Positions 1-9,330 of a stretch of DNA of 56,450 bases are shown piece by piece. The notes beneath the pieces are model-generated. The model was not told the DNA's origin. It made no database searches and saw only the letters and a list, made by a program, of their open reading frames with translations. Made by a program: the position numbers and the translations under genes. Every line of letters begins with the position of its first letter. Position 1 is the first letter of the stretch. The stretch is from assembly GCA_023250205.1 (NCBI GenBank), contig JAHFBE010000003.1, forward strand, positions 1-56,450, in the 5' to 3' direction. The DNA is from Candidatus Melainabacteria bacterium. GTDB lineage: Bacteria > Cyanobacteriota > Vampirovibrionia > 2-02-FULL-35-15.

Positions 1-827
1 GTTTTGGAACAAAAGCAGGTCTTGCTCCAATGCACACATGGCTTCCTGATGCCCACAGTGAAGCTCCTACACCTGTAAGTGCCTTGTTATCCGGAGTACT
101 TTTAAAGTGTGCTTTATATGGAATTATCCGATTTGCAATTTTAATTAATCTTGCTGTTGACAGTAATTTTACAAGTCATCTTCTCTTGTTCTTTGGGCTC
201 TTGTCAATAATAGTTGCAACCCCGTTTATTTTAGTTCAGAAAAACATTAAACGTCTTTTGGCATACAGTTCTCTTGAACATATTGGAATAATAACAACTG
301 GTCTGGCATTTGGAAATTCGCTTTCTGTTTTTGGTGCATTTATTCACATTATTAATCACGCAATTGTTAAATCACTTATGTTTTTTACGGCAGGAAATAT
401 TTCATTAAAATTCCACACTAAAGATATGGATCATATTAAAGGAGCAGCTCAAATTGTTCCGCTTAGTGCTTTTGCTCTTATTCTTGGAGGGCTTGCGCTT
501 GCAGGTGCACCACCATTTTCAATTTTTATAAGTGAGTTTTACATTCTTGCCGGTGGAATTAAAGAAAATCATTTAATTGCAAGCGGACTGATTATTTTTC
601 TCCTTACAGTAATCTTTGGAGGGCTTCTTTATCATTTCCTTAAAATTACTATAGGACCGATTAATGGTCTAACAAATCTTTCTAACGCACAACTTGGAAG
701 GTCAAGCAACTTTCCTGTTCTTATATGTCTTTTTGTTATTGTTTTACTTGGAGTTTCAATACCATCTCCACTATTCCGTCTTGTAAATGAAGCAGTAAAA
801 ATATTTAGCATGGGAAATACGATATGA
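1..827 (+). CDS. hyfF: Hydrogenase-4 component F / NuoL-M-like antiporter-type membrane subunit (5'-truncated)
   Basis: The frame is open from the window start: FGTKAGLAPMHTWLPDAHSEAPTPVSALLSG and KRLLAYSSLEHIG are proton-conducting subunit motifs; very hydrophobic; overlaps the next gene by 4 nt. Confidence 0.9.
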   Translation, partial: FGTKAGLAPMHTWLPDAHSEAPTPVSALLSGVLLKCALYGIIRFAILINLAVDSNFTSHLLLFFGLLSIIVATPFILVQKNIKRLLAYSSLEHIGIITTGLAFGNSLSVFGAFIHIINHAIVKSLMFFTAGNISLKFHTKDMDHIKGAAQIVPLSAFALILGGLALAGAPPFSIFISEFYILAGGIKENHLIASGLIIFLLTVIFGGLLYHFLKITIGPINGLTNLSNAQLGRSSNFPVLICLFVIVLLGVSIPSPLFRLVNEAVKIFSMGNTI

Positions 828-2440
828 AGATATTAGTTGAAAAAGATATAGAATTTTTAGTCGAATGTCTGAAAAAGACACTTAATGTTAATGTCAAGAT
901 AAATGGAGTTAACCATCTTCAAATTACCCTTGAAAAGAACTATTTACTTTCTGCTGTAGAATATATTTCTCAAAATTCTGAATTCAATGCACATTTAATT
1001 ACAATGCTTGCATCTGATGAAAGGGAGTTAAACGGGAACTTTAAACTCTATATAATATTTTCAGTTATTCAGCCAAGGACAATTCTTACTCTTGAAATTT
1101 TATTAGATAAAGATAAACCTTCTTATCCAGCCCTTTCTGAAAAAATCCCTTCGTTAAACTGGCATGAAAGAGAAATTCATGATTTGTTTGGAATTGTACC
1201 CGATGGAATTGAATTAGATCCGTTGGTATTGCACAGAGACTGGCCTCATGGAAAATATTTTCCTCTGCGAAATGATTTTCTGCTTAATAAGCAGTTTCCA
1301 TTTGGAGAAGTTAATCATGAATTTAGTCAACCTCATGGAGAAGGTATGCACCAGATTGCAGTAGGACCTATTCATGCAGGAATAATTGAGCCTGGGCATC
1401 TTAGATTTTGTGCAATTGGGGAAGAGATTTACAAATTTGATGCTCAGCTTTTTTATACACATAAAGGGCTTGAAAAAATGGCTTATGGAAAAAGTGTTGA
1501 AGAAGTTCTTGTTCTTGCAGAACATACCTGTGGTATGTGTGCTTTTTCTCATTCAAGTGCATTTTGCCAGGCAGTTGAAAATCTAGGAGGTATTAAAATT
1601 CCCCGGAGAGCGGCTTACCTTAGAACAATTGGCCTTGAAATGGAGAGAATTAGCAATCATATGGCAGATCTTATGGCTATCTGTTCTGCTGGTGGACTTA
1701 GTTTTGGGGCTAGTCATGCCGGAAGACTTAGGGAATTTCTAATGGGACTAAATCATGACTTTGCAGGACATCGTTTTTTTCGAAACTTAAATACAATTGG
1801 CGGATTGAAAAGAAATATTTCTGATGAGTTCTGTAAACTACTCCTGGAAAAACTTGAAAAATTTAAACCTCAATTTCAGGAATGGGAGCAACTAATAACA
1901 AATAATGATAGTCTTCTTGACAGACTTGAGCTTACAGGATTTTTATCTAATGAAAATGGACTTAAACTTGGGATTGTTGGTCCTGCTGCAAGAGCTTCAA
2001 ATATTGACAGAGATGTTAGGCGTGATTATCCTTACTTTGCTTATGAAGATTATGTTGTTAAAGTGCCGATATATGAAGATGGAGATGCTTTAGCACGCAT
2101 GCAGGTCAGAATTGATGAAGTATATGAATCTTTAAGGCTTATTAAAAATTTAATTAACAATCTTCCTTCTGGAAGCATCTTAGATCATAATTCTCTAAAA
2201 TACCCTATTCATACGCCTTCTATATCAATAGTTGAATCTGCCAAAGGTGAACTGTCCCATTTTATTATGCTTGGTGAAGAAAATAAAGTTTTTCGCTGGC
2301 ATGTAAGAAGTGCTTCATATATGAACTGGAGAGGAGTAGTACAGGCAACTATGGGGCAGGACAGATTTAAAAATATTGTTCCAGATGGACCACTTGTAAA
2401 TAAAAGCTTTAATTTATGTTATGCCTGTGTGGATAGGTAA
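824..2440 (+). CDS. hyfG: Group 4 [NiFe]-hydrogenase-like / Ehr large subunit (NuoC+NuoD-like fusion, HycE/HyfG type)
   Basis: WHEREIHDLFGI, VGPIHAGIIEPGHLRF, YTHKGLEK, EHTCGMC, ELERIxNH-like EMERISNH, C-terminus NKSFNLCYACVDR. Confidence 0.9.
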   Translation: MKILVEKDIEFLVECLKKTLNVNVKINGVNHLQITLEKNYLLSAVEYISQNSEFNAHLITMLASDERELNGNFKLYIIFSVIQPRTILTLEILLDKDKPSYPALSEKIPSLNWHEREIHDLFGIVPDGIELDPLVLHRDWPHGKYFPLRNDFLLNKQFPFGEVNHEFSQPHGEGMHQIAVGPIHAGIIEPGHLRFCAIGEEIYKFDAQLFYTHKGLEKMAYGKSVEEVLVLAEHTCGMCAFSHSSAFCQAVENLGGIKIPRRAAYLRTIGLEMERISNHMADLMAICSAGGLSFGASHAGRLREFLMGLNHDFAGHRFFRNLNTIGGLKRNISDEFCKLLLEKLEKFKPQFQEWEQLITNNDSLLDRLELTGFLSNENGLKLGIVGPAARASNIDRDVRRDYPYFAYEDYVVKVPIYEDGDALARMQVRIDEVYESLRLIKNLINNLPSGSILDHNSLKYPIHTPSISIVESAKGELSHFIMLGEENKVFRWHVRSASYMNWRGVVQATMGQDRFKNIVPDGPLVNKSFNLCYACVDR

Positions 2441-2447
2441 ATTTTTT

Positions 2448-2999
2448 ATGCTGAATATTTTAAAAATGATAGCCAAGACAAAAATTGTGACAGAGAAATC
2501 TCCTCTAATTGAGTCAATTGATTTTGAAACTTTGCAAAAAGATCTATCAAGGTTTGAGAAATTAGATTATGAGGTTAAAAGAGCGCTCAGTAAATCATTG
2601 ACTATTCGTCATTTGGATAGTGGTTCTTCTAATGCCGAGGAAGCAGAACTTCTTGCCCTTTCAAACCCTGTTTATGATATTACTCGCTTTGGAATTGATT
2701 TTACAGCTTCACCACGTCATGCAGATGTGCTTACTATAAGTGGTCCTGTTACAAGACAGTTAAAAATTGCAATGGACAGAACTTATAATGCAATGCCCTA
2801 TCCAAAAATTGTCGTAGCAGTTGGTGATGGTGCATGCAATGGTTCTGTTTATCAAAATACATATGCTTGCCTGGGAAGAGTAGATCAATTTTTACCCGTT
2901 GATATTTATATTCCGGGAGATCCACCAACACCAGAGGTAATTTTAAAAGGACTTTTAATGTGTAAATTGATTTTAATTGAAAAGAAGGGTAGGTTGTGA
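2448..2999 (+). CDS. hyfI: NuoB/HycG/HyfI-like small subunit lacking the canonical Fe-S cysteines
   Basis: RHLDSGSSNAEEAEL, FGIDFTASPRHADVL, GPVT, VAVGDGAC, IYIPGDPPTP. ATG 2448, just after the hyfG stop, is preferred over 2421. Confidence 0.85.
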   Translation: MLNILKMIAKTKIVTEKSPLIESIDFETLQKDLSRFEKLDYEVKRALSKSLTIRHLDSGSSNAEEAELLALSNPVYDITRFGIDFTASPRHADVLTISGPVTRQLKIAMDRTYNAMPYPKIVVAVGDGACNGSVYQNTYACLGRVDQFLPVDIYIPGDPPTPEVILKGLLMCKLILIEKKGRL

Positions 3000-3589
3000 A
3001 AATGGATAAAAAAGATAGTTTATTAAAAGTTGATGTCTTGTCAATCGGATTATTTGGATTGGCAGTGGGTGCTTTGACTCTAGGACTTGTGCAGATTGGA
3101 ATTATTCCACATAATGACGATCTGGCTATATCAATCATCTGTCTTATTTTTGGTGGTATTGTTCAGATTATAGCTGGCATGATTGATGTAAGGTATCATG
3201 ATCAGCTTGGTGGAACAGCATTGACTATGTATGGATTTTACTGGACAACTGTTTTTACAGTTAAGATTCTTGGTTTAGTAGAGGGATTTCACTGGGATAA
3301 TGTGCTTTTCCTGCCACTTGTGGTAATCTATGCAATGTTTTCAGCGATAATGATTTACTTAACGGGTCATAAATCCAAGGCTTTAATGATACTTCATGTT
3401 TTCATTACTGTAGTTTTTACTATTGATATTTTTATTAAATTAAATTATCCATTTGAATATTATGCAGGTATAGATCATATTATTATTGGTCTTCTTGCAC
3501 TTTATCATGCAATGGTTACACTGATAAATAAATTCACTGGCAAAGCAGGATTTTTATTAGGAAACCCTCCATTCAAATTCAGGAATTAA
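2996..3589 (+). CDS. satP: GPR1/FUN34/YaaH (SatP-like) acetate/carboxylate channel
   Basis: IGLFGLAVGALTL, FGGIVQIIAGM, GTALTMYGFYW; about 6 hydrophobic helices; overlaps hyfI by 4 nt. Confidence 0.75.
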   Translation: MKMDKKDSLLKVDVLSIGLFGLAVGALTLGLVQIGIIPHNDDLAISIICLIFGGIVQIIAGMIDVRYHDQLGGTALTMYGFYWTTVFTVKILGLVEGFHWDNVLFLPLVVIYAMFSAIMIYLTGHKSKALMILHVFITVVFTIDIFIKLNYPFEYYAGIDHIIIGLLALYHAMVTLINKFTGKAGFLLGNPPFKFRN

Positions 3590-4136
3590 TTATATAAAGT
3601 TTATTGTCTTCTATGTTATATAACATAGGCACAAAGATAATCGGAGGGTATTTCTCTTTTAATCTTTTACTTTCACTTACTATAAATTCTTTTTCATTCT
3701 CTATTTCAAAGAAGGGAGCAAAAGAATTAAAGTGATTTTCTGCCTGTTCTTTAGTCCAGCTAGCATTTTTAACAAGTCCATCTACAAATTTTTCTTTTTT
3801 GCTGGTTAGATTTACCATTCCACAGTTTGTATGAGCTATAAGTGCTACAAATTTAATATCAGCAAAGCCAATTGCAAAGGAGAGCTTGAATTCATTACCA
3901 GTAATCCTTGCTCCTGCCGTCCTTAAGATATATGAAAATTTACCAGGTATGTTAAGCTGCTTTCTATTATCCATGCACATTACTATAGCCATCTGTGCAG
4001 TATCGTAATCTTTAAATGGCATTTCAAGATTATGATATTTAAGTAAATCAGCAATTGGAGTATTTAAAAGATTATTAGGAATATCTTTTTCATTACAGAT
4101 ATCTATAAGCTGATATTTTGAAGTAACATCTTTCAT
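3579..4136 (-). CDS. Beta-class carbonic anhydrase
   Basis: Zn-binding motifs CMDNR (CxDxR) and HTNC (HxxC), plus RTAG. Confidence 0.85.
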   Translation of the reverse strand: MKDVTSKYQLIDICNEKDIPNNLLNTPIADLLKYHNLEMPFKDYDTAQMAIVMCMDNRKQLNIPGKFSYILRTAGARITGNEFKLSFAIGFADIKFVALIAHTNCGMVNLTSKKEKFVDGLVKNASWTKEQAENHFNSFAPFFEIENEKEFIVSESKRLKEKYPPIIFVPMLYNIEDNKLYIINS

Positions 4137-4150
4137 AATAAATTAAAACA

Positions 4151-4558
4151 TTATGCCCAGAAAGAAATAATCTCTGAATAAGTAGATAAAAGCTCGCTGT
4201 TTATAGCTAACTGATAGCCTATTAAATGAAGTGCACTGATAAGTACCTTTGAAATCTTTTTTGACTCAGTAAGATAGTAATATACTTCTTTACCCTTTCT
4301 TTCTTCAACAACAAGCTTATTTACTTTTAAAAGTGAAAGATGTTGTGAAACATTTGACTGGCTTATGTATAGTTCATCTTGTATTTGATGAACGTTTAAA
4401 CTTTTTTTCTTTTTTAATAACCATAAAATTTTAACCCTTATTGGATGTGAGAGTATTGAAAATAAATTCGAAACAGAATTAATTTGTTCCTCAGGGGTTT
4501 TATATACAACTCTTTTTTTACTTTTCATTATGGGTTCTATTATATCAGCTAGTAACAT
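4151..4558 (-). CDS. ArsR/SmtB family transcriptional regulator
   Basis: LFSILSHPIRVKIL...SQSNVSQHLSLLK...EERKGKEVYY winged HTH. Confidence 0.9.
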   Translation of the reverse strand: MLLADIIEPIMKSKKRVVYKTPEEQINSVSNLFSILSHPIRVKILWLLKKKKSLNVHQIQDELYISQSNVSQHLSLLKVNKLVVEERKGKEVYYYLTESKKISKVLISALHLIGYQLAINSELLSTYSEIISFWA

Positions 4559-4595
4559 ATTCTAATATTCGAATGTGTTAAAATCTTCAGGTATC

Positions 4596-6131
4596 ATGAA
4601 TCTAAATCGTAAAAATTACTCTATTGACAAATTTAAAGCTGACTTTTTCTCATCTATAGTTGTATTTCTTGTTGCGCTTCCTTTATGTCTTGGAATTGCT
4701 ATAGCTTCAGGAATGCTGCCAGCAGCAGGTTTAATATCTGGAATTATTGGTGGAATAATTGTTGGTAGTTTATCTGGTTGCCCTCTTCAAGTAAGCGGAC
4801 CAGCTGCTGGTCTTGTAGGTATTATTTATGAAGTAATTCAAGAACATGGTATTGAAAGTCTTGGAGCTATTGTTTTGTTTGCGGGTGTTCTACAAATAGT
4901 TGCCGGTATTTTAAAACTTGGACCATGGTTTCGAGCTGTTTCTCCACCAGTTATTCATGGAATGCTTGCTGGTATTGGAATCCTTATATTTTCCAGTCAG
5001 TTCCATGTAATGGTTGATGATCTGCCAAAAAGTTCTGGGATTGAAAATATACTATCTCTTCCTACCAGCTTTCTTAAGGGAGTAACTCCGCTTGATACTA
5101 CCAGCCATCATTTAGCTGCATTAATTGGATTAATAACTATTTCCAGCATGATTCTCTGGAGATTTATGCCAAAGAAGTTAAAAACTATACCTTCTGCTTT
5201 AGTTGGAGTCTTGATGACTACTTTATTAGCACATTACTTACATTATCCTATTAAGCATGTTTTAGTTCCTGAAAATATTTGGAGTGCTATTAAACTTCCA
5301 TCATTAGAAAGTTTTTCTTGTCTTTTAAGCTGGGAGGTATTGGTTGAAGCTTTAACAGTGGCATTTATTGCTAGTGCTGAGACTTTGCTTACTTCCTCTG
5401 CAATAGATAAAATGAAATCAAGTCACAGGACAAATTATAATAAAGAAATTATTGCTCAGGGTATTGGTAATTCTTTAGCGGGCTTAATTGGAGCAATTCC
5501 AATAACAGGTGTTATTGTACGTAGTGCAGCAAATGTTACTGCAGGTGCTAAGACACGCGCTTCAGCAGTCTTTCATGGAGTATGGATCTTGTTGTTTGTT
5601 GCTTATTTTTCTCGGTTACTAGAAATGATTCCTACGGCTGCCCTTGCTGCTGTTTTAGTTTATACAGGGTATAAATTAGTAGATTTAAATGCAATAAAAA
5701 ATCTAGCTAAGATTGGTAAGAGTGAAATAGTTATATATTTTGTAACATTATCTGCCATTGTTATGACTAGTCTGCTTGAAGGAATTCTTATTGGAATAGT
5801 ATTTTCTGTGATTAAACTACTCTATGATTTCTCAAAACTGGAATTAAGAATTGAAAAAGAAAAAGAGGAAAATATAGTTCATTTCTATATTAATGGAAAT
5901 GCTACTTTTATTAATCTTCCAAAGTTTGCTGATGCTCTGGAAAGTATTGTTCACGGGAAAGAAGTTTTTGTTCACTTTGAAGGACTTGTTCATATTGATC
6001 ATGCAAGTCTGGAATTTATAATGAACTGGGAAAAGCAATATGAGTCTGCAGGGGGAGTTGTTTCAATTAGATGGAATGAACTTGAAGCAAAGTTTAACAA
6101 ATCAAAAGCTATTAGTCGATCAAAAGTTTAA
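4596..6131 (+). CDS. SulP/SLC26 anion (bicarbonate/sulfate) transporter with short STAS-like tail
   Basis: VVFLVALPLCLGIAIASG, QVSGPAAG, EIIAQGIGN, TGVIVRSAAN. Start is either ATG 4596 or GTG 4575. Confidence 0.92.
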   Translation: MNLNRKNYSIDKFKADFFSSIVVFLVALPLCLGIAIASGMLPAAGLISGIIGGIIVGSLSGCPLQVSGPAAGLVGIIYEVIQEHGIESLGAIVLFAGVLQIVAGILKLGPWFRAVSPPVIHGMLAGIGILIFSSQFHVMVDDLPKSSGIENILSLPTSFLKGVTPLDTTSHHLAALIGLITISSMILWRFMPKKLKTIPSALVGVLMTTLLAHYLHYPIKHVLVPENIWSAIKLPSLESFSCLLSWEVLVEALTVAFIASAETLLTSSAIDKMKSSHRTNYNKEIIAQGIGNSLAGLIGAIPITGVIVRSAANVTAGAKTRASAVFHGVWILLFVAYFSRLLEMIPTAALAAVLVYTGYKLVDLNAIKNLAKIGKSEIVIYFVTLSAIVMTSLLEGILIGIVFSVIKLLYDFSKLELRIEKEKEENIVHFYINGNATFINLPKFADALESIVHGKEVFVHFEGLVHIDHASLEFIMNWEKQYESAGGVVSIRWNELEAKFNKSKAISRSKV

Positions 6132-8317
6132 TCTCTAAATCCTTCTTTAAGATTATTTGCAAATTTTAATATATTGTTCTTTATTTCTTCAGTAACTTTT
6201 TTTGCATTTTCAACAGCATCTTCAAGAGCTTCTTGTTTAGACTTCTTAGCTTCTTCCATTTGTTTTTGCTCGGCTTTAGCTTGTTCTTCAGCAGCTTTCT
6301 TTGCATTTTCAATAGCTTCTTGTTTAGACTTCTCAGCTTCTTCCATTTGTTTTTGCTCGGCTTTAGCTTGTTCTTCAGCAGCTTTCTTTGCATCTTCAAT
6401 AGCTTCTTGTTTGGATTTCTCAACTTCTTCGGCTTGTTTTTGCTCAGCTTTAGCTTGTTCTTCAGCAGCTTTCTTTGCATCTTCAATAGCTTTTTGTTTG
6501 GATTTCTCAACTTCTTCAGCTTGTTTTTGTTCAGCTTTAGCTTGCTCTTCAGTAGCTTTTTTCTTGGCTTCTTCCATAGCATTTTTTATTGCTTCTATGG
6601 CTTGTTTGATATTTCCTTGATTGTTACTAGCAGTGTTTAAGACTTCTGGTATTGAAGGAAGAGGATTAGCCATTATGACTGGCTGAGTAGTGGTAGTAGT
6701 TGCAGGAAGAGGATCAGCCATTATGATTGGTTGAGTGGTAGTAGTAGTTGCAGGAAGAGGATCAGCCATTATGATTGGTTGAGTGGTAGTAGTAGTTGAA
6801 GGAAGAGGATCAGCCATTATGATTGGTTGAGTGGTAGTAGTAGTTACAGGAAGAGGATCAGCCATTGTAGTTGGTTGAGTTATTGTGTTTGCAGGAGAAG
6901 AAGAACTGATATTTGTTATTACTGGACTTGGGGATGGATTAAAATTAATTACAGTTGGGATTTGGATAGTGTCTGTTGAAGTTGTTGAAGCTGTAGTAGT
7001 TGGCTTATTAGATGCATTATTATTTGAAGGACTATTGGACATAGAGCCTCCAGTATCCAGATTTAAAACAACATTATTATCAGAGGTAATGCTTCCTGTA
7101 GGTGCAATATATAAACCTCTAAGAATAGGTGGATTTTCCAGATCATTTGTAGTTAATCTTATTCTTAATTGAATATTACTGCTTGGAGCTATATGAAAAT
7201 TTTGAAATGTAGGAGTTCCATCTCCAAAAGTCTCTATGGTGGATTTAAGTTTGTTTTGTTTGTCTTTTTCTGCAGAATAGATTAGGATATTTTGTTTATA
7301 TGATTCAGTGGTGTATAAACCTAGTTCACAGCCATTTAAGCAGAGACTCATATCAGGGTTTAAATAAAACTCAAGTCCATTGCTTCCCTTTGGTCCTGCC
7401 ATTCCTTGTAAAACTTTGAAATTATAAAAATCTTTATTTTTTAGTGATAATGGGAACTCATAACCAGTTGATGTTGCATACTTAATCATGCCTACACTTA
7501 ATTGAACTAAATCATCATTTTCTGATTCTTCTTTTGATCTTGGCGACCATATTACTGTACTGGAATCAACTCTTTGAGACCAGGTAGGTGCACTTACTTT
7601 CTCAGGTCCAACATAGGTAATCCTTAAATCACTTTCTCTTCTTGGTTCACTCCAAAAAATGCCACTGATCGCTGCTTTAGAATTGTCCTGTGGAGCTATT
7701 TCAATTGTTAGTGTTCCAACTGAGCGAGGATCGGGTGATTTTACTAATAAGTTTAAATAACAACCAACTTTAAATTTTGTATTTTGAATATAAGTAATAT
7801 CTCCTAGAGCACTATTTGCATAAGATAGTTTTAATTTAATTTGTTCAGCAGGATTATTAATAACAAAGGGATCAAAATATAAATTTAATGGGATCCAGGT
7901 AATGAAATCATTATTGTTTTGTAAATCTATCATTATGGAAAGAGTTTCTCCATCAAGTGAAGAAGATAAATAATATTTATTTCTTTCACCATTTTTAGAA
8001 GCACTTTCTGGAGTACTTATACTAATTGAGCTGCTTTCCTGAATAACACCGGAGTAAGTTAGGTTTGTTATATATGGAGGTAATTTTGTTTGCGTATTTG
8101 ATGGGTCAGCAAGCCAATAATATGAATACTCTGTACTCCATGCTCCGTTTAAATCACAATTTGTTTTTGGGGCTGATTCCTTTATATATGATGGATTTAG
8201 GTAAGTAGCATTTGAAATTTCTGGGGCAGTTTGAGCTAATACTTGGCCAGTACAAACTGCTGTAAGCAATAAAAGAATGTATAAGATATTTAAGTTTGAC
8301 TTTGTTTTAGTTTGCAT
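6128..8317 (-). CDS. Secreted hypothetical protein with a Thr/Pro-rich linker and a TolA-like Lys/Glu/Ala coiled-coil tail
   Basis: 729-aa ORF with an N-terminal signal-like segment (ILYILLLLTAVCTGQVLA) and two internal repeat arrays. Confidence 0.75.
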   Translation of the reverse strand: MQTKTKSNLNILYILLLLTAVCTGQVLAQTAPEISNATYLNPSYIKESAPKTNCDLNGAWSTEYSYYWLADPSNTQTKLPPYITNLTYSGVIQESSSISISTPESASKNGERNKYYLSSSLDGETLSIMIDLQNNNDFITWIPLNLYFDPFVINNPAEQIKLKLSYANSALGDITYIQNTKFKVGCYLNLLVKSPDPRSVGTLTIEIAPQDNSKAAISGIFWSEPRRESDLRITYVGPEKVSAPTWSQRVDSSTVIWSPRSKEESENDDLVQLSVGMIKYATSTGYEFPLSLKNKDFYNFKVLQGMAGPKGSNGLEFYLNPDMSLCLNGCELGLYTTESYKQNILIYSAEKDKQNKLKSTIETFGDGTPTFQNFHIAPSSNIQLRIRLTTNDLENPPILRGLYIAPTGSITSDNNVVLNLDTGGSMSNSPSNNNASNKPTTTASTTSTDTIQIPTVINFNPSPSPVITNISSSSPANTITQPTTMADPLPVTTTTTQPIIMADPLPSTTTTTQPIIMADPLPATTTTTQPIIMADPLPATTTTTQPVIMANPLPSIPEVLNTASNNQGNIKQAIEAIKNAMEEAKKKATEEQAKAEQKQAEEVEKSKQKAIEDAKKAAEEQAKAEQKQAEEVEKSKQEAIEDAKKAAEEQAKAEQKQMEEAEKSKQEAIENAKKAAEEQAKAEQKQMEEAKKSKQEALEDAVENAKKVTEEIKNNILKFANNLKEGFRD
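6216..6564 (-). repeat. Four intragenic 87-bp repeats (KKAAEEQAKAEQKQ[A/M]EExEKSKQEAIEDA)
   Basis: The 29-aa unit appears 4 times in the translation; the DNA copies are near-identical. Confidence 0.9.
6654..6880 (-). repeat. About five intragenic 48-bp repeats (QPIIMADPLPxTTTTT)
   Basis: ggaagaggatcagccattatgattggttgagtggtagtagtagtt recurs every 48 nt. Confidence 0.9.
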
Positions 8318-8546
8318 AAGGAACCGGTAGTGCGAGTAAGCGCAAGGCTATTAACCGGGATTTAGGTAAAGATTCAATTAAAGTAGATTGGAAAAAGGTT
8401 AAAAAATGCAATTGAAATCTAAAAACTTTTTAATAAATCTAAGAAAAGCTCAAAAAATGCACTTTATTAAGTTACTTTAGAATGAAAATGGGTAAGCCCT
8501 ATAAGTGCTTTTTATACCATTTGTGGAAATCAATCCAACACTTCAT

Positions 8547-8629
8547 GTCATTGCGAGCCGAATGAAATAAGGCGTGGCAATCTCCTAACGTTTTGGAGAT
8601 TCCCACGTCGCTTTGCTCCTCGGAATGAC
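8547..8629. repeat. REP-like palindromic element, GTCATTGCGAG family, copy 1
   Basis: gtcattgcgag...ggcaatctc...gagattccc...ctcggaatgac; intergenic, downstream of rpe. Confidence 0.85.
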
Positions 8630-8661
8630 GTGATATGTTGGTTTATTTTTCGCGTTCGGTA

Positions 8662-9330
8662 TTAGGTTCTCATTTGAGCTATTGTTTTTTGAATTTCAGA
8701 TTGTGATTTAAGACTATAAATAGCATTACCAGCCACCAAGACATTAGCACCTGCTGATCTAACTATTGGAGCAGTTTGTGTGTTTATTCCACCATCTACT
8801 TCTATATGTTTATCATTTAAATTTGCTTCTTTAAAAAGCTTTTTTACTTCTGAAATCTTTGGGACAACAGAACTAATAAATCTTTGCCCACCAAAACCTG
8901 GATTTACTGTCATCACTAATACAAGATCAACAATTTCTAAAACATATTTTAAAGAATCTATAGGCGTATGAGGATTAAATGAAACTCCAGCCTTACAACC
9001 AAGTTCTTTTATATAGGTAAGAGTTCTTTGAAGATGTGTACACGCTTCAGCATGAATAGTAATAATATTTGCTCCGGCACTTGCAAAATCTTTTATGTGT
9101 TTGTCGGGATTAACTATCATTAAATGAACATCGAGTGGTAATTTGGTGATTTGTCTTATACACTTAACGACAGGTGCACCAATAGTAATATTAGGTACAA
9201 ATTGCCCATCCATTACATCTACATGAATCCAGTCAGCACCAGCATCTTCTACTTTTTTAATCTCATTCTTTAAATCTGAAAAATCTGCAGACAGGATAGA
9301 TGGGGCAATTAGTATTTTTGAGTTTGACAT
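8662..9330 (-). CDS. rpe: Ribulose-phosphate 3-epimerase
   Basis: IAPSILSAD, IHVDVMDGQFVPN, LVMTVNPGFGGQ, IEVDGGI. Confidence 0.97.
   Translation of the reverse strand: MSNSKILIAPSILSADFSDLKNEIKKVEDAGADWIHVDVMDGQFVPNITIGAPVVKCIRQITKLPLDVHLMIVNPDKHIKDFASAGANIITIHAEACTHLQRTLTYIKELGCKAGVSFNPHTPIDSLKYVLEIVDLVLVMTVNPGFGGQRFISSVVPKISEVKKLFKEANLNDKHIEVDGGINTQTAPIVRSAGANVLVAGNAIYSLKSQSEIQKTIAQMRT

Follow-up and report, generated by a model that had tools for sequence, protein, structure and literature searches.

Do the hydrogenase-like, channel, carbonic anhydrase, repressor and transporter genes found side by side at the start of a contig from a Melainabacteria genome form one system, or are they two sets of genes that happen to be neighbours? 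The contig (JAHFBE010000003.1, positions 1 to 56,450 of the forward strand, assembly GCA_023250205.1) belongs to a metagenome-assembled genome (MAG) of Melainabacteria (Vampirovibrionia), and the whole stretch of 56,450 nucleotides that was analysed is called the window below. An earlier note on this DNA had read hyfF, hyfG, hyfI, satP, the genes of a beta-class carbonic anhydrase (CA) and an ArsR repressor, and sulP as a candidate for a single non-redox module for CO2, bicarbonate or carboxylates. Our analysis points instead, with a probability of about 0.7, to two functionally independent modules, brought together beside rpe by an arrangement specific to this lineage. Module A comprises the hyf operon together with satP, and module B is the divergent trio of sulP on one side and arsR with the CA gene on the other. 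Module B is of a known kind, and module A is a newly seen variant within the Ehr/group-4f (Ehr/4f) family of complex-I-like complexes.

Distribution of the two gene sets

The comparison was performed on family f1, which consists of 12 genomes, the window's own (G000) and 11 others, most of them 94-98% complete; 10 of the 11 others carry a HyfG orthologue. The CA gene and sulP adjoin hyf in one of the 11 hyf-bearing genomes, that of the window's species. An orthologue of the CA is present in 11 of the 12 genomes, and the divergent trio (sulP <> arsR-CA) was found at 11 loci; outside the window's genus it is unlinked to hyf and lies on other contigs or about 130 kb away. Moreover, the presence of the two sets is reciprocal: G003 carries hyf and satP and no CA gene, while G002, which is 98% complete and belongs to the same genus as the window, carries the trio and no hyf. 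In the closest relative (G003, L090; HyfG 67% and HyfI 77% identical), satP is followed directly by rpe-tal-secD, so that the 4.7-kb block with the CA, ArsR and SulP genes and an open reading frame (ORF) of 729 aa is an insertion or deletion at that point. Within the window's genus, g1, the trio always abuts rpe, and the juxtaposition in the window thus reflects a local arrangement.

The repressors follow the same division. Nine of the 11 hyf-bearing family genomes have a different ArsR paralogue in front of hyfB, of which the window's genome has no orthologue. The ArsR of the window is the orthologue of the trio repressor and not of the hyf-linked one: the trio ArsR orthologues match it at E 1e-47 to 1e-68 and the hyf-linked ArsRs at 1e-9 to 1e-12.

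These results bear on the proposals of the earlier note. The neighbourhood that it expected to co-occur across relatives is found again for satP, whereas the synteny of the CA gene, sulP and arsR is not conserved, a pattern that it had named in advance as speaking against its reading. The CA, SulP and ArsR could not be retained as parts of one system with SatP and Hyf, which was rejected on synteny, on the reciprocal presence and absence and on the uniqueness of the operator described below. Control of hyf by the window's ArsR was likewise rejected, as this protein is the trio orthologue and the palindrome that it probably binds occurs only between arsR and sulP.

The wider family was searched with a genome scan, which returned at least 600 matching Ehr/4f stretches over many bacterial and archaeal phyla, and 80 loci were fetched. 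All 80 loci, from many phyla, contain a six-gene core in the order B-C-E-F-G-I or I-B-C-E-F-G. Pfam annotation of the 117 nearest-neighbour ORFs at 79 loci was tallied for the 25 most frequent families with at least two members. The top counts were three each, for SulP (3/117), MetRS and tRNA_bind, and neither Pro_CA nor SatP was recurrent among the matches listed. The idea that Ehr complexes at large have a conserved partner gene was rejected, since no family recurs in this tally.

In a few unrelated Ehr/4f-type operons, those of L041 (Ectobacillus funiculus), L070 (Betaproteobacteria) and the Methylococcales loci L054 and L081, hyfB is immediately preceded by a sulP gene of the same orientation. 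By a rough, uncomputed estimate this placement is commoner than expected by chance at Ehr/4f operons, and it is far from a family trait.

A hydrogenase-like complex and its SatP-like partner

The satP gene was found in the hyf operon of eight of the 11 hyf-bearing family genomes and never outside hyf operons; none was detected in the hyf-less genomes of the family and class. It usually follows hyfI, precedes hyfB in G001 and is split over a contig end in G007. Its product is the best-conserved protein of the operon, with a mean identity to the window copy of 82% versus 60-67% for the six Hyf subunits, and this conservation, together with its restriction to the operon, argues for a tighter integration than mere co-regulation. 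In the hyf-bearing genomes without satP (G005, G008 and G010) no conserved replacement gene was present downstream of hyfI. The link between the hyf operon and its SatP-like gene is real and conserved, and in this respect the SatP and carboxylate link drawn in the earlier note is borne out. The protein matches PF01184 with 44.4 bits (threshold 25) and NF038013 with 62.4 bits (threshold 50), and the SatP structures 5YS3 and 5ZUG, aligned over the full length, are its sole PDB matches. The residues that we take to form the hydrophobic constriction of SatP, F17/Y72/L131, are conservatively kept as L22/Y79/I137. The N-terminal segment aligned with NPAPLGL, presumably the SatP signature, reads DVLSIGL and departs from it.

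The large subunit HyfG retains the CGMC...H motif, within AEHTCGMCAFSH, and ends in ...NLCYACVDR*, so that both CxxC pairs are kept and there is no C-terminal extension; E. coli HycE is matched at E 6.5e-84. The four NiFe cysteines are invariant across the 11 family genomes compared. In the HyfG clade (n = 66 members at 48-82% identity) the L2 CxxC pair occurs in 66 of 66 and the L1 pair in at least 63 members. The flanks of both pairs are changed clade-wide: the L1 ER became EH or EN (Arg to His or Asn) and the L2 FELC became FNLC (Glu to Asn). The L1 Arg and the L2 Glu are conserved in the Cys-bearing relatives of HyfG. As the four Cys are kept and the Arg and Glu beside them have changed clade-wide, selection appears to maintain the site for a purpose other than a NiFe centre, and the site probably holds a simple metal ion.

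In the small subunit, HyfI, the four positions of the proximal [4Fe-4S] ligands read S70/E73/C139/D167, and three of the four Cys are thus lost. The same columns read CCCC in 40 of the 87 aligned family members, which validates the mapping of the positions. The combinations in 120 close relatives of HyfI from metagenomes were CECD (58), SECD (15), CECN (15), NECD (12), TECD (9) and CCCC (1). The window and the family f1 loci therefore show [S/C]EC[D/N] in the small and CCCC in the large subunit, and most of the wider family shows CCCC in the small and SSSG in the large subunit. PF01058 is the sole domain match of HyfI, and no ferredoxin domain is present. The AlphaFold2 model of HyfI, which is of moderate quality (mean pLDDT 67, pTM 0.70), has the NuoB/MbhJ/HycG fold with a Foldseek probability of 1.00. 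The former CxxC loop (residues 71-85) is of low confidence, so the model supports the fold and says nothing firm about the cluster pocket.

Both ligand sets are lost in some Ehr-type operons, with TECE, TEIN, SEID or DTCN in the small and SSSG or SESG in the large subunit. These are L015, L030, L034, L042, L045, L048, L072 and L079, from the Candidate Phyla Radiation (CPR), Bdellovibrionales and one gammaproteobacterial MAG, and L018, L028, L035, L047, L057 and L084, from methanogens and others. No redox cofactor would be predicted for such complexes, and this is a separate hint that part of the family has a role outside redox chemistry.

The maturation machinery is missing as well. HypD (PF01924) was found in none of the 12 f1 genomes, and HypF (TIGR00143) in none of the 12 above threshold; both were found in control genomes and in those members of the class whose group-4 hydrogenase is another one, with 32% identity to HyfG. 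At the five gene-called loci the operon contains no Fer4-type gene or other electron-input partner (HyfH/HycF/NuoI-like, HyfA or FdhF). Molybdopterin enzymes, possibly formate dehydrogenases, are encoded in two of the eight hyf-bearing genomes searched and also in the hyf-less G002. This lack of correlation with hyf argues against a formate hydrogenlyase, and this assignment was rejected, no FdhF being encoded in or near the operon. One molybdopterin-family ORF of 1209 aa (G000:C41:17985-20141, minus strand), either nitrate reductase-like or formate dehydrogenase-like in type, occurs only in G000, G002 and G006. Without synthesis of the Fe(CN)2CO group, a proximal cluster or an electron-input subunit, canonical H2 chemistry by module A is very unlikely, in agreement with the earlier note, which had suggested a role other than H2 chemistry for the complex.

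HyfB and HyfF, by comparison, both keep the Glu of transmembrane helix (TM) 5 (WE/IE), the TM7 Lys (GTKAG...WLP), the TM8 Lys and the TM12 Glu, which we take to be the pump motifs as in NuoL/M/N and Mrp. The membrane arm of module A thus looks competent for ion translocation, in line with the use of an ion-motive force suggested in the earlier note. All six hyf genes are intact and free of stops in 11 genomes of 10 genera (g1-g9), at 55-86% identity, and more than 60 distinct members of the HyfG clade were found in metagenomes.

A phylogenetic tree of the large subunit, built from 85 rows with FastTree as one quick method, placed the Cys-less rows in one clade (98% local support) and the Melainabacteria rows in another (98%). 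The Melainabacteria clade falls outside the Cys-less clade, beside three rows with CCCC in both subunits. Module A is best described as a lineage derived from group-4f [NiFe]-hydrogenases in which the Fe-S wire and the maturation pathway were lost.

Module B and the layout of the locus

The genes of the window's first part are listed in the table below, which is based on Pfam and NCBIfam scans of all ORFs of at least 60 aa in the window from 1 to 9330 and in C50:24000-37345. Contig C50 of the same genome carries the upstream half of the hyf operon, since the window starts at a contig edge; the end of C50 encodes an extracytoplasmic function (ECF) sigma factor, a zf-HC2 anti-sigma factor, HyfB, HyfC (NuoH-like), HyfE and the N-terminus of HyfF. 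The two pieces are joined in a public contig of 112 kb (L088), which encodes an identical HyfI and a complete HyfF of 493 aa, so the operon is contiguous across the contig break. The order there is sigma, anti-sigma, hyfBCEFGI and satP, then the CA gene and arsR on the opposite strand, and then sulP. Close homologues bear 'Candidatus Melainabacteria' labels.

Coordinates, strand and module of the features discussed, in positions of the window
Feature	Position	Strand	Module	Remarks
HyfF-like antiporter-like subunit, C-terminal 274 aa	3..827	+	A	PF00361 and NF005044 matches; N-terminal part on C50
HyfG-like large subunit, NuoC/NuoD fusion	824..2440	+	A	Pfam/NCBIfam matches; best solved relative E. 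coli HycE (7Z0S_E)
HyfI/NuoB-like small subunit	2448..2999	+	A	Longest ORF from 2421; orthologue starts correspond to Met at 2448
SatP/AceTr-like six-TM anion channel	3002..3589	+	A	GTG at 2996 would overlap hyfI by 4 nt
Small beta-class carbonic anhydrase (CA)	3579..4136	-	B	Second gene of the arsR-CA operon
Cys-free ArsR/SmtB-family repressor	4151..4528	-	B	Longest ORF reaches 4558; start Met11
28-bp palindrome TAACATATTCTAATATTCGAATGTGTTA, probable ArsR operator	4553..4580		B	Overlaps both divergent promoter-like sites
SulP/SLC26-family anion transporter, putative bicarbonate transporter	4596..6131	+	B	ORF open from GTG 4575
ORF of 729 aa, no Pfam match	6128..8317	-		Seen with module B in the window's species and G002

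The seven genes named in the earlier note are all found where it had placed them. Its overlapping run from hyfF to satP that converges on the CA gene is also present, although the operon extends further, onto C50: hyfF and hyfG overlap by 4 nt, hyfI and satP overlap by 4 nt or are separated by 2 nt depending on the start codon chosen, and the 3' ends of the convergent satP and CA genes overlap by 11 nt. The divergence of arsR and sulP likewise holds, but the distance of less than 40 bp given for it came from longest-ORF calls. With the ArsR start reset to Met11 (4528) by the alignment of orthologues, which yields a protein of 125 aa, and the sulP start at ATG 4596 according to the gene caller, the gap is 67 bp.

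The ArsR protein belongs to the HTH_5 winged-helix family (PF01022; NF033788, 79.2 bits). Neither an alpha3 (CxC) nor an alpha5 (Asp/His/Glu) metal site is present in it, and there is one His in the region of the C-terminal helix. It has no Cys, as is also the case for 10 of its 11 orthologues, which matches Rv0081 (10.1101/465575). The 28-bp palindrome in the arsR-sulP gap overlaps promoter-like hexamers in both directions, and near-identical palindromes lie in the same gap of the orthologous trios. No second copy occurs in the 2.09-Mb genome, the region upstream of hyfB included, even when 4 mismatches are allowed. The palindrome is the probable operator of ArsR and, being present in a single copy, confines the predicted regulon to the trio.

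The CA scores just under the threshold of PF00484 (25.1 bits, threshold 25.7), and most of its orthologues carry a precomputed PF00484 match. The residues C54, D56, R58, H102 and C105 (CxDxR...HxxC, the Zn ligands and the Asp-Arg dyad) are invariant in 15 orthologues. Its relatives in the PDB are the CS2 hydrolase 3TEN (the best, E 1e-4) and the beta-CA Rv1284, and Clostridium homologues with 56% identity, annotated as carbonic anhydrase, belong to the same small beta-CA group. The gene product would be a small beta-class carbonic anhydrase, which may hydrate CO2 or hydrolyse COS or CS2. A second, divergent CA paralogue (49% identity) is present in G008 (G008:C1:515589-516107, L129) without arsR or sulP as neighbours.

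SulP matches PF00916 (Sulfate_transp) with 221.8 bits as well as TIGR00815, and its PDB relatives are SLC26Dg (5DA0) and BicA (6KI1). The models that define the substrate are below threshold, with 144.9 bits versus 880 for BicA (NF050096) and 194 versus 614 for DauA. The SulP partner of arsR-CA is of two paralogue types, one in L118, L120-L125 and L127 and the other in the window, L119, L126 and L128. They match the window's SulP at E about 1e-30 to 1e-46 and at 1e-187 to 1e-252, respectively; both belong to the SulP family, and the tested type has a STAS domain. The transporter was exchanged, with ArsR, the CA and the operator left in place.

Several features of the surroundings were recorded as well. 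The Rfam scan of 16.5 kb gave no match at E <=1 to a riboswitch or other RNA. No terminator was predicted between satP and the CA gene, and the single terminator-like site lies inside sulP, a count below the shuffle mean. Inspection of the sequence upstream of hyfB for an ECF-type promoter revealed nothing convincing. The ECF sigma and zf-HC2 anti-sigma genes flank hyf in both hyf-bearing g1 genomes (G000:C50 (L007) 7727-9001 and L104 10386-11453); the pair follows hyf in G001 and lies upstream of it in the window's genome, where it occupies the place of the ArsR gene that precedes hyfB in nine of the other 10 hyf-bearing genomes. A DUF2490 gene recurs beside hyf or Ehr-type operons, namely in L007 (6140-6985, minus strand) and L091 (11160-11885), both from Melainabacteria, and at two unrelated loci of the wider family. 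The 729-aa ORF has a weak TolA-like low-complexity stretch, and its 3' end overlaps that of sulP by 4 nt. Its orthologue adjoins sulP in G002 (L118), whereas G001 has none in the interval from sulP to rpe. The ORF apparently belongs to neither module.

Relatives, rival readings and meaning

Ehr/4f complexes were reported in Melainabacteria earlier, with unknown function (PMC6349859), and the Ehr/Hyq/Rv0082-87 architecture is described elsewhere with a function that is unknown or disputed (PMC6349859, PMC10284858, PMC2650096, 10.1101/465575). The nearest named relatives of the large subunit are of group 4f ('Ehf' in HydDB; e.g., Desulfosporosinus orientis), from Desulfosporosinus and other Bacillota, with 42-46% identity. 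Module A shares with this group the HyfB/C/E/F-type membrane subunits and a large subunit with both CxxC pairs and the end ...CxxCxDR. It differs in its small subunit, which has neither the [4Fe-4S] Cys nor a ferredoxin domain, in the absence of hyp genes, in the replaced L1 Arg and L2 Glu and in the SatP-like gene of the operon. The same six genes without a NuoI/HyfH-like subunit make up Ehr, Hyq (hyqRBCEFGI of Azorhizobium caulinodans) and Rv0081-Rv0088 of M. tuberculosis, and the ArsR that precedes the operon in nine of the 11 hyf-bearing family genomes has no metal site, like Rv0081 (10.1101/465575). Classic Ehr and Hyq complexes show the reverse of the ligand pattern found here, with a large subunit without Cys and a small subunit with four. 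The window's clade, moreover, falls outside that monophyletic group (98% local support), and in the window's genome the ECF sigma/anti-sigma pair replaces the hyf-linked ArsR.

The E. coli formate hydrogenlyase (Hyc/Hyf; 7Z0S) resembles module A in the similarity of HycE to HyfG, in the match of the HyfI model to HycG and NuoB and in its homologous membrane subunits. Module A has no equivalents of FdhF, HycB, HycF and HycI, no hyp genes and a clusterless small subunit. With DabAB/MpsAB and the cyanobacterial NDH-1 with CupA/B, which perform vectorial CO2 hydration, it shares the concept alone, namely a complex-I-type antiporter module joined to a non-redox metal subunit. DabA (DUF2309), CupA/CupB and ChpY are not encoded among the scanned ORFs of the region; unlike in DAB and Cup, the candidate metal site consists of four Cys, and the CA and SulP lie outside the conserved unit. 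The satP gene also differs from those of the SatP/YaaH (AceTr) acetate-succinate channels, being embedded in a complex-I-like operon. The literature searched revealed no other complex that combines a Cys4 large subunit with a small subunit devoid of its cluster, in a genome without hyp genes and with a SatP-like gene in the operon.

SulP transporters are known to be paired with CAs, and such pairs have been connected with the supply of bicarbonate or the control of pH (PMC6458275). Module B resembles the sulP-can pairs and SulP-CA fusions (Acidithiobacillus can2-sulP; M. tuberculosis Rv3273) in that SulP and a beta-CA are paired, at 11 loci here. Unlike these, it has a divergent layout, with a Cys-free ArsR of its own and the 28-bp palindrome between the two sides, has one of two SulP paralogues depending on the genome and contains a small CA of the Clostridium type.

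According to the reading that we favour, module A consists of the ECF sigma/anti-sigma genes followed by hyfBCEFGI-satP and would form a six-subunit complex-I-like membrane complex. Having lost the Fe-S cluster of the small subunit, the electron input and the Hyp maturation, it would be unable to work as a hydrogenase. It may instead be a non-redox H+- or Na+-translocating device tied to a dedicated SatP-like carboxylate channel, and a simple metal at the four-Cys site would then serve for structure or gating. In a fermenting cell, this device would take part in the homeostasis of acid anions, ions or pH, a tentative proposal which we consider possible and somewhat doubtful. Module B would be a unit of inorganic-carbon supply or pH control, with a SulP that probably carries bicarbonate and a cytoplasmic beta-CA, in which the Cys-free ArsR would occupy the one palindrome that lies between the two promoters and thereby repress both genes and itself. 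The substrates transported by each module, and the coupling of the peripheral arm to the pump in module A, are inferred.

Several points weigh against this picture. Both modules lie beside rpe in genera g1 and g2, and an ancestral hyf-satP-trio-rpe arrangement, with some co-regulation in this sub-lineage, may have existed. The strict conservation of the four Cys suggests some cofactor, which may have an unconventional redox role, and the C-E-C-D residues of most small subunits might bind some metal centre. The role proposed for module A is deduced from its parts, and the substrate of SulP is putative, with a BicA equivalog score far below the threshold.

A single ion-gradient-driven system for CO2, bicarbonate or carboxylates made of HyfBCEFGI, SatP, the beta-CA, SulP and ArsR, in the manner of DabAB or NDH-1/Cup, would account for the physical adjacency of the genes in the window's species, for the shared position beside rpe in g1 and g2 and for a complex that appears non-redox and has intact pump residues. 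The sulP genes directly upstream of the Ehr-type operons in L041, L054, L070 and L081 would also fit it. We nevertheless regard it as highly improbable, given the adjacency in one of 11 genomes and the independent conservation of the trio, the reciprocal presence in G003 (hyf without the CA) and G002 (the reverse), an operator unique to the sulP-arsR gap and the lack of a DabA or CupA homologue among the genes of the region. A metal site with four Cys, moreover, has no free coordination position for the activation of water. A similarly poor prospect is a working group-4 [NiFe]-hydrogenase that evolves or oxidises H2, matures by an unrecognised route and receives electrons from a soluble carrier. 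The strictly conserved NiFe cysteines, the identity to group-4f-type large subunits and the end of HyfG at the mature C-terminal Arg, as in other protease-independent group-4 enzymes, are in its favour, but it would have to work without HypD and HypF in all 12 family genomes, without the proximal cluster ligands or any Fe-S subunit in the operon, and with the L1 Arg and L2 Glu replaced clade-wide.

Two further accounts keep module A apart from module B. It may be an Mrp-like cation/proton antiporter whose four-Cys cap senses redox state or metals, by a thiol/disulfide switch or by metal binding, and gates the flux, with SatP as an acetate channel that is co-regulated but separate in mechanism. 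Intact Lys and Glu pump residues and Cys conserved without an electron wire agree with such a sensor, as do the links to the zf-HC2 anti-sigma and ECF sigma factors in g1 and to a Cys-free ArsR in other genera; the conservation of SatP above the Hyf subunits, and its absence outside the operon, do not, and we judge this account unlikely. A decaying, functionless remnant of a hydrogenase operon is scarcely credible: the loss of Fe-S ligands, hyp genes and the electron-input subunit, and the complete absence of the operon from G002 of the same genus, would be expected of it, but six intact genes in 10 genera, invariant pump residues and cysteines and the many metagenomic members of the clade would not. 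As an extension of the non-redox reading of module A, HyfBCEFGI-SatP could be a new kind of ion-gradient machine, in which a small oxyanion (acetate, formate or bicarbonate) enters through the AceTr channel and is bound or converted by the Cys4 site and the former quinone/H2 cavity. We consider this distinctly unlikely. If true, complex-I modules would have been taken over independently once more, after NDH-1/Cup and DAB, for tasks outside redox chemistry, here in the sister lineage of Cyanobacteria.

The function of Ehr/group-4f complexes has been a question since their first description, and they are very widespread. The Melainabacteria clade offers a natural dissection of this scaffold, in which the Cys4 site and the pump were kept, the Fe-S wire, the electron donor and the Hyp proteins were lost and an anion channel was gained. 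Motif-based classifiers would label HyfG a group-4 hydrogenase, so that inferences of H2 metabolism drawn from such calls for Melainabacteria could be wrong. Module B contributes a tidy predicted regulon with a single operator. For the Ehr/4f family, the clade argues that at least some of its complexes operate without hydrogen, and possibly without redox chemistry, and the carboxylate channel provides a concrete candidate partner.

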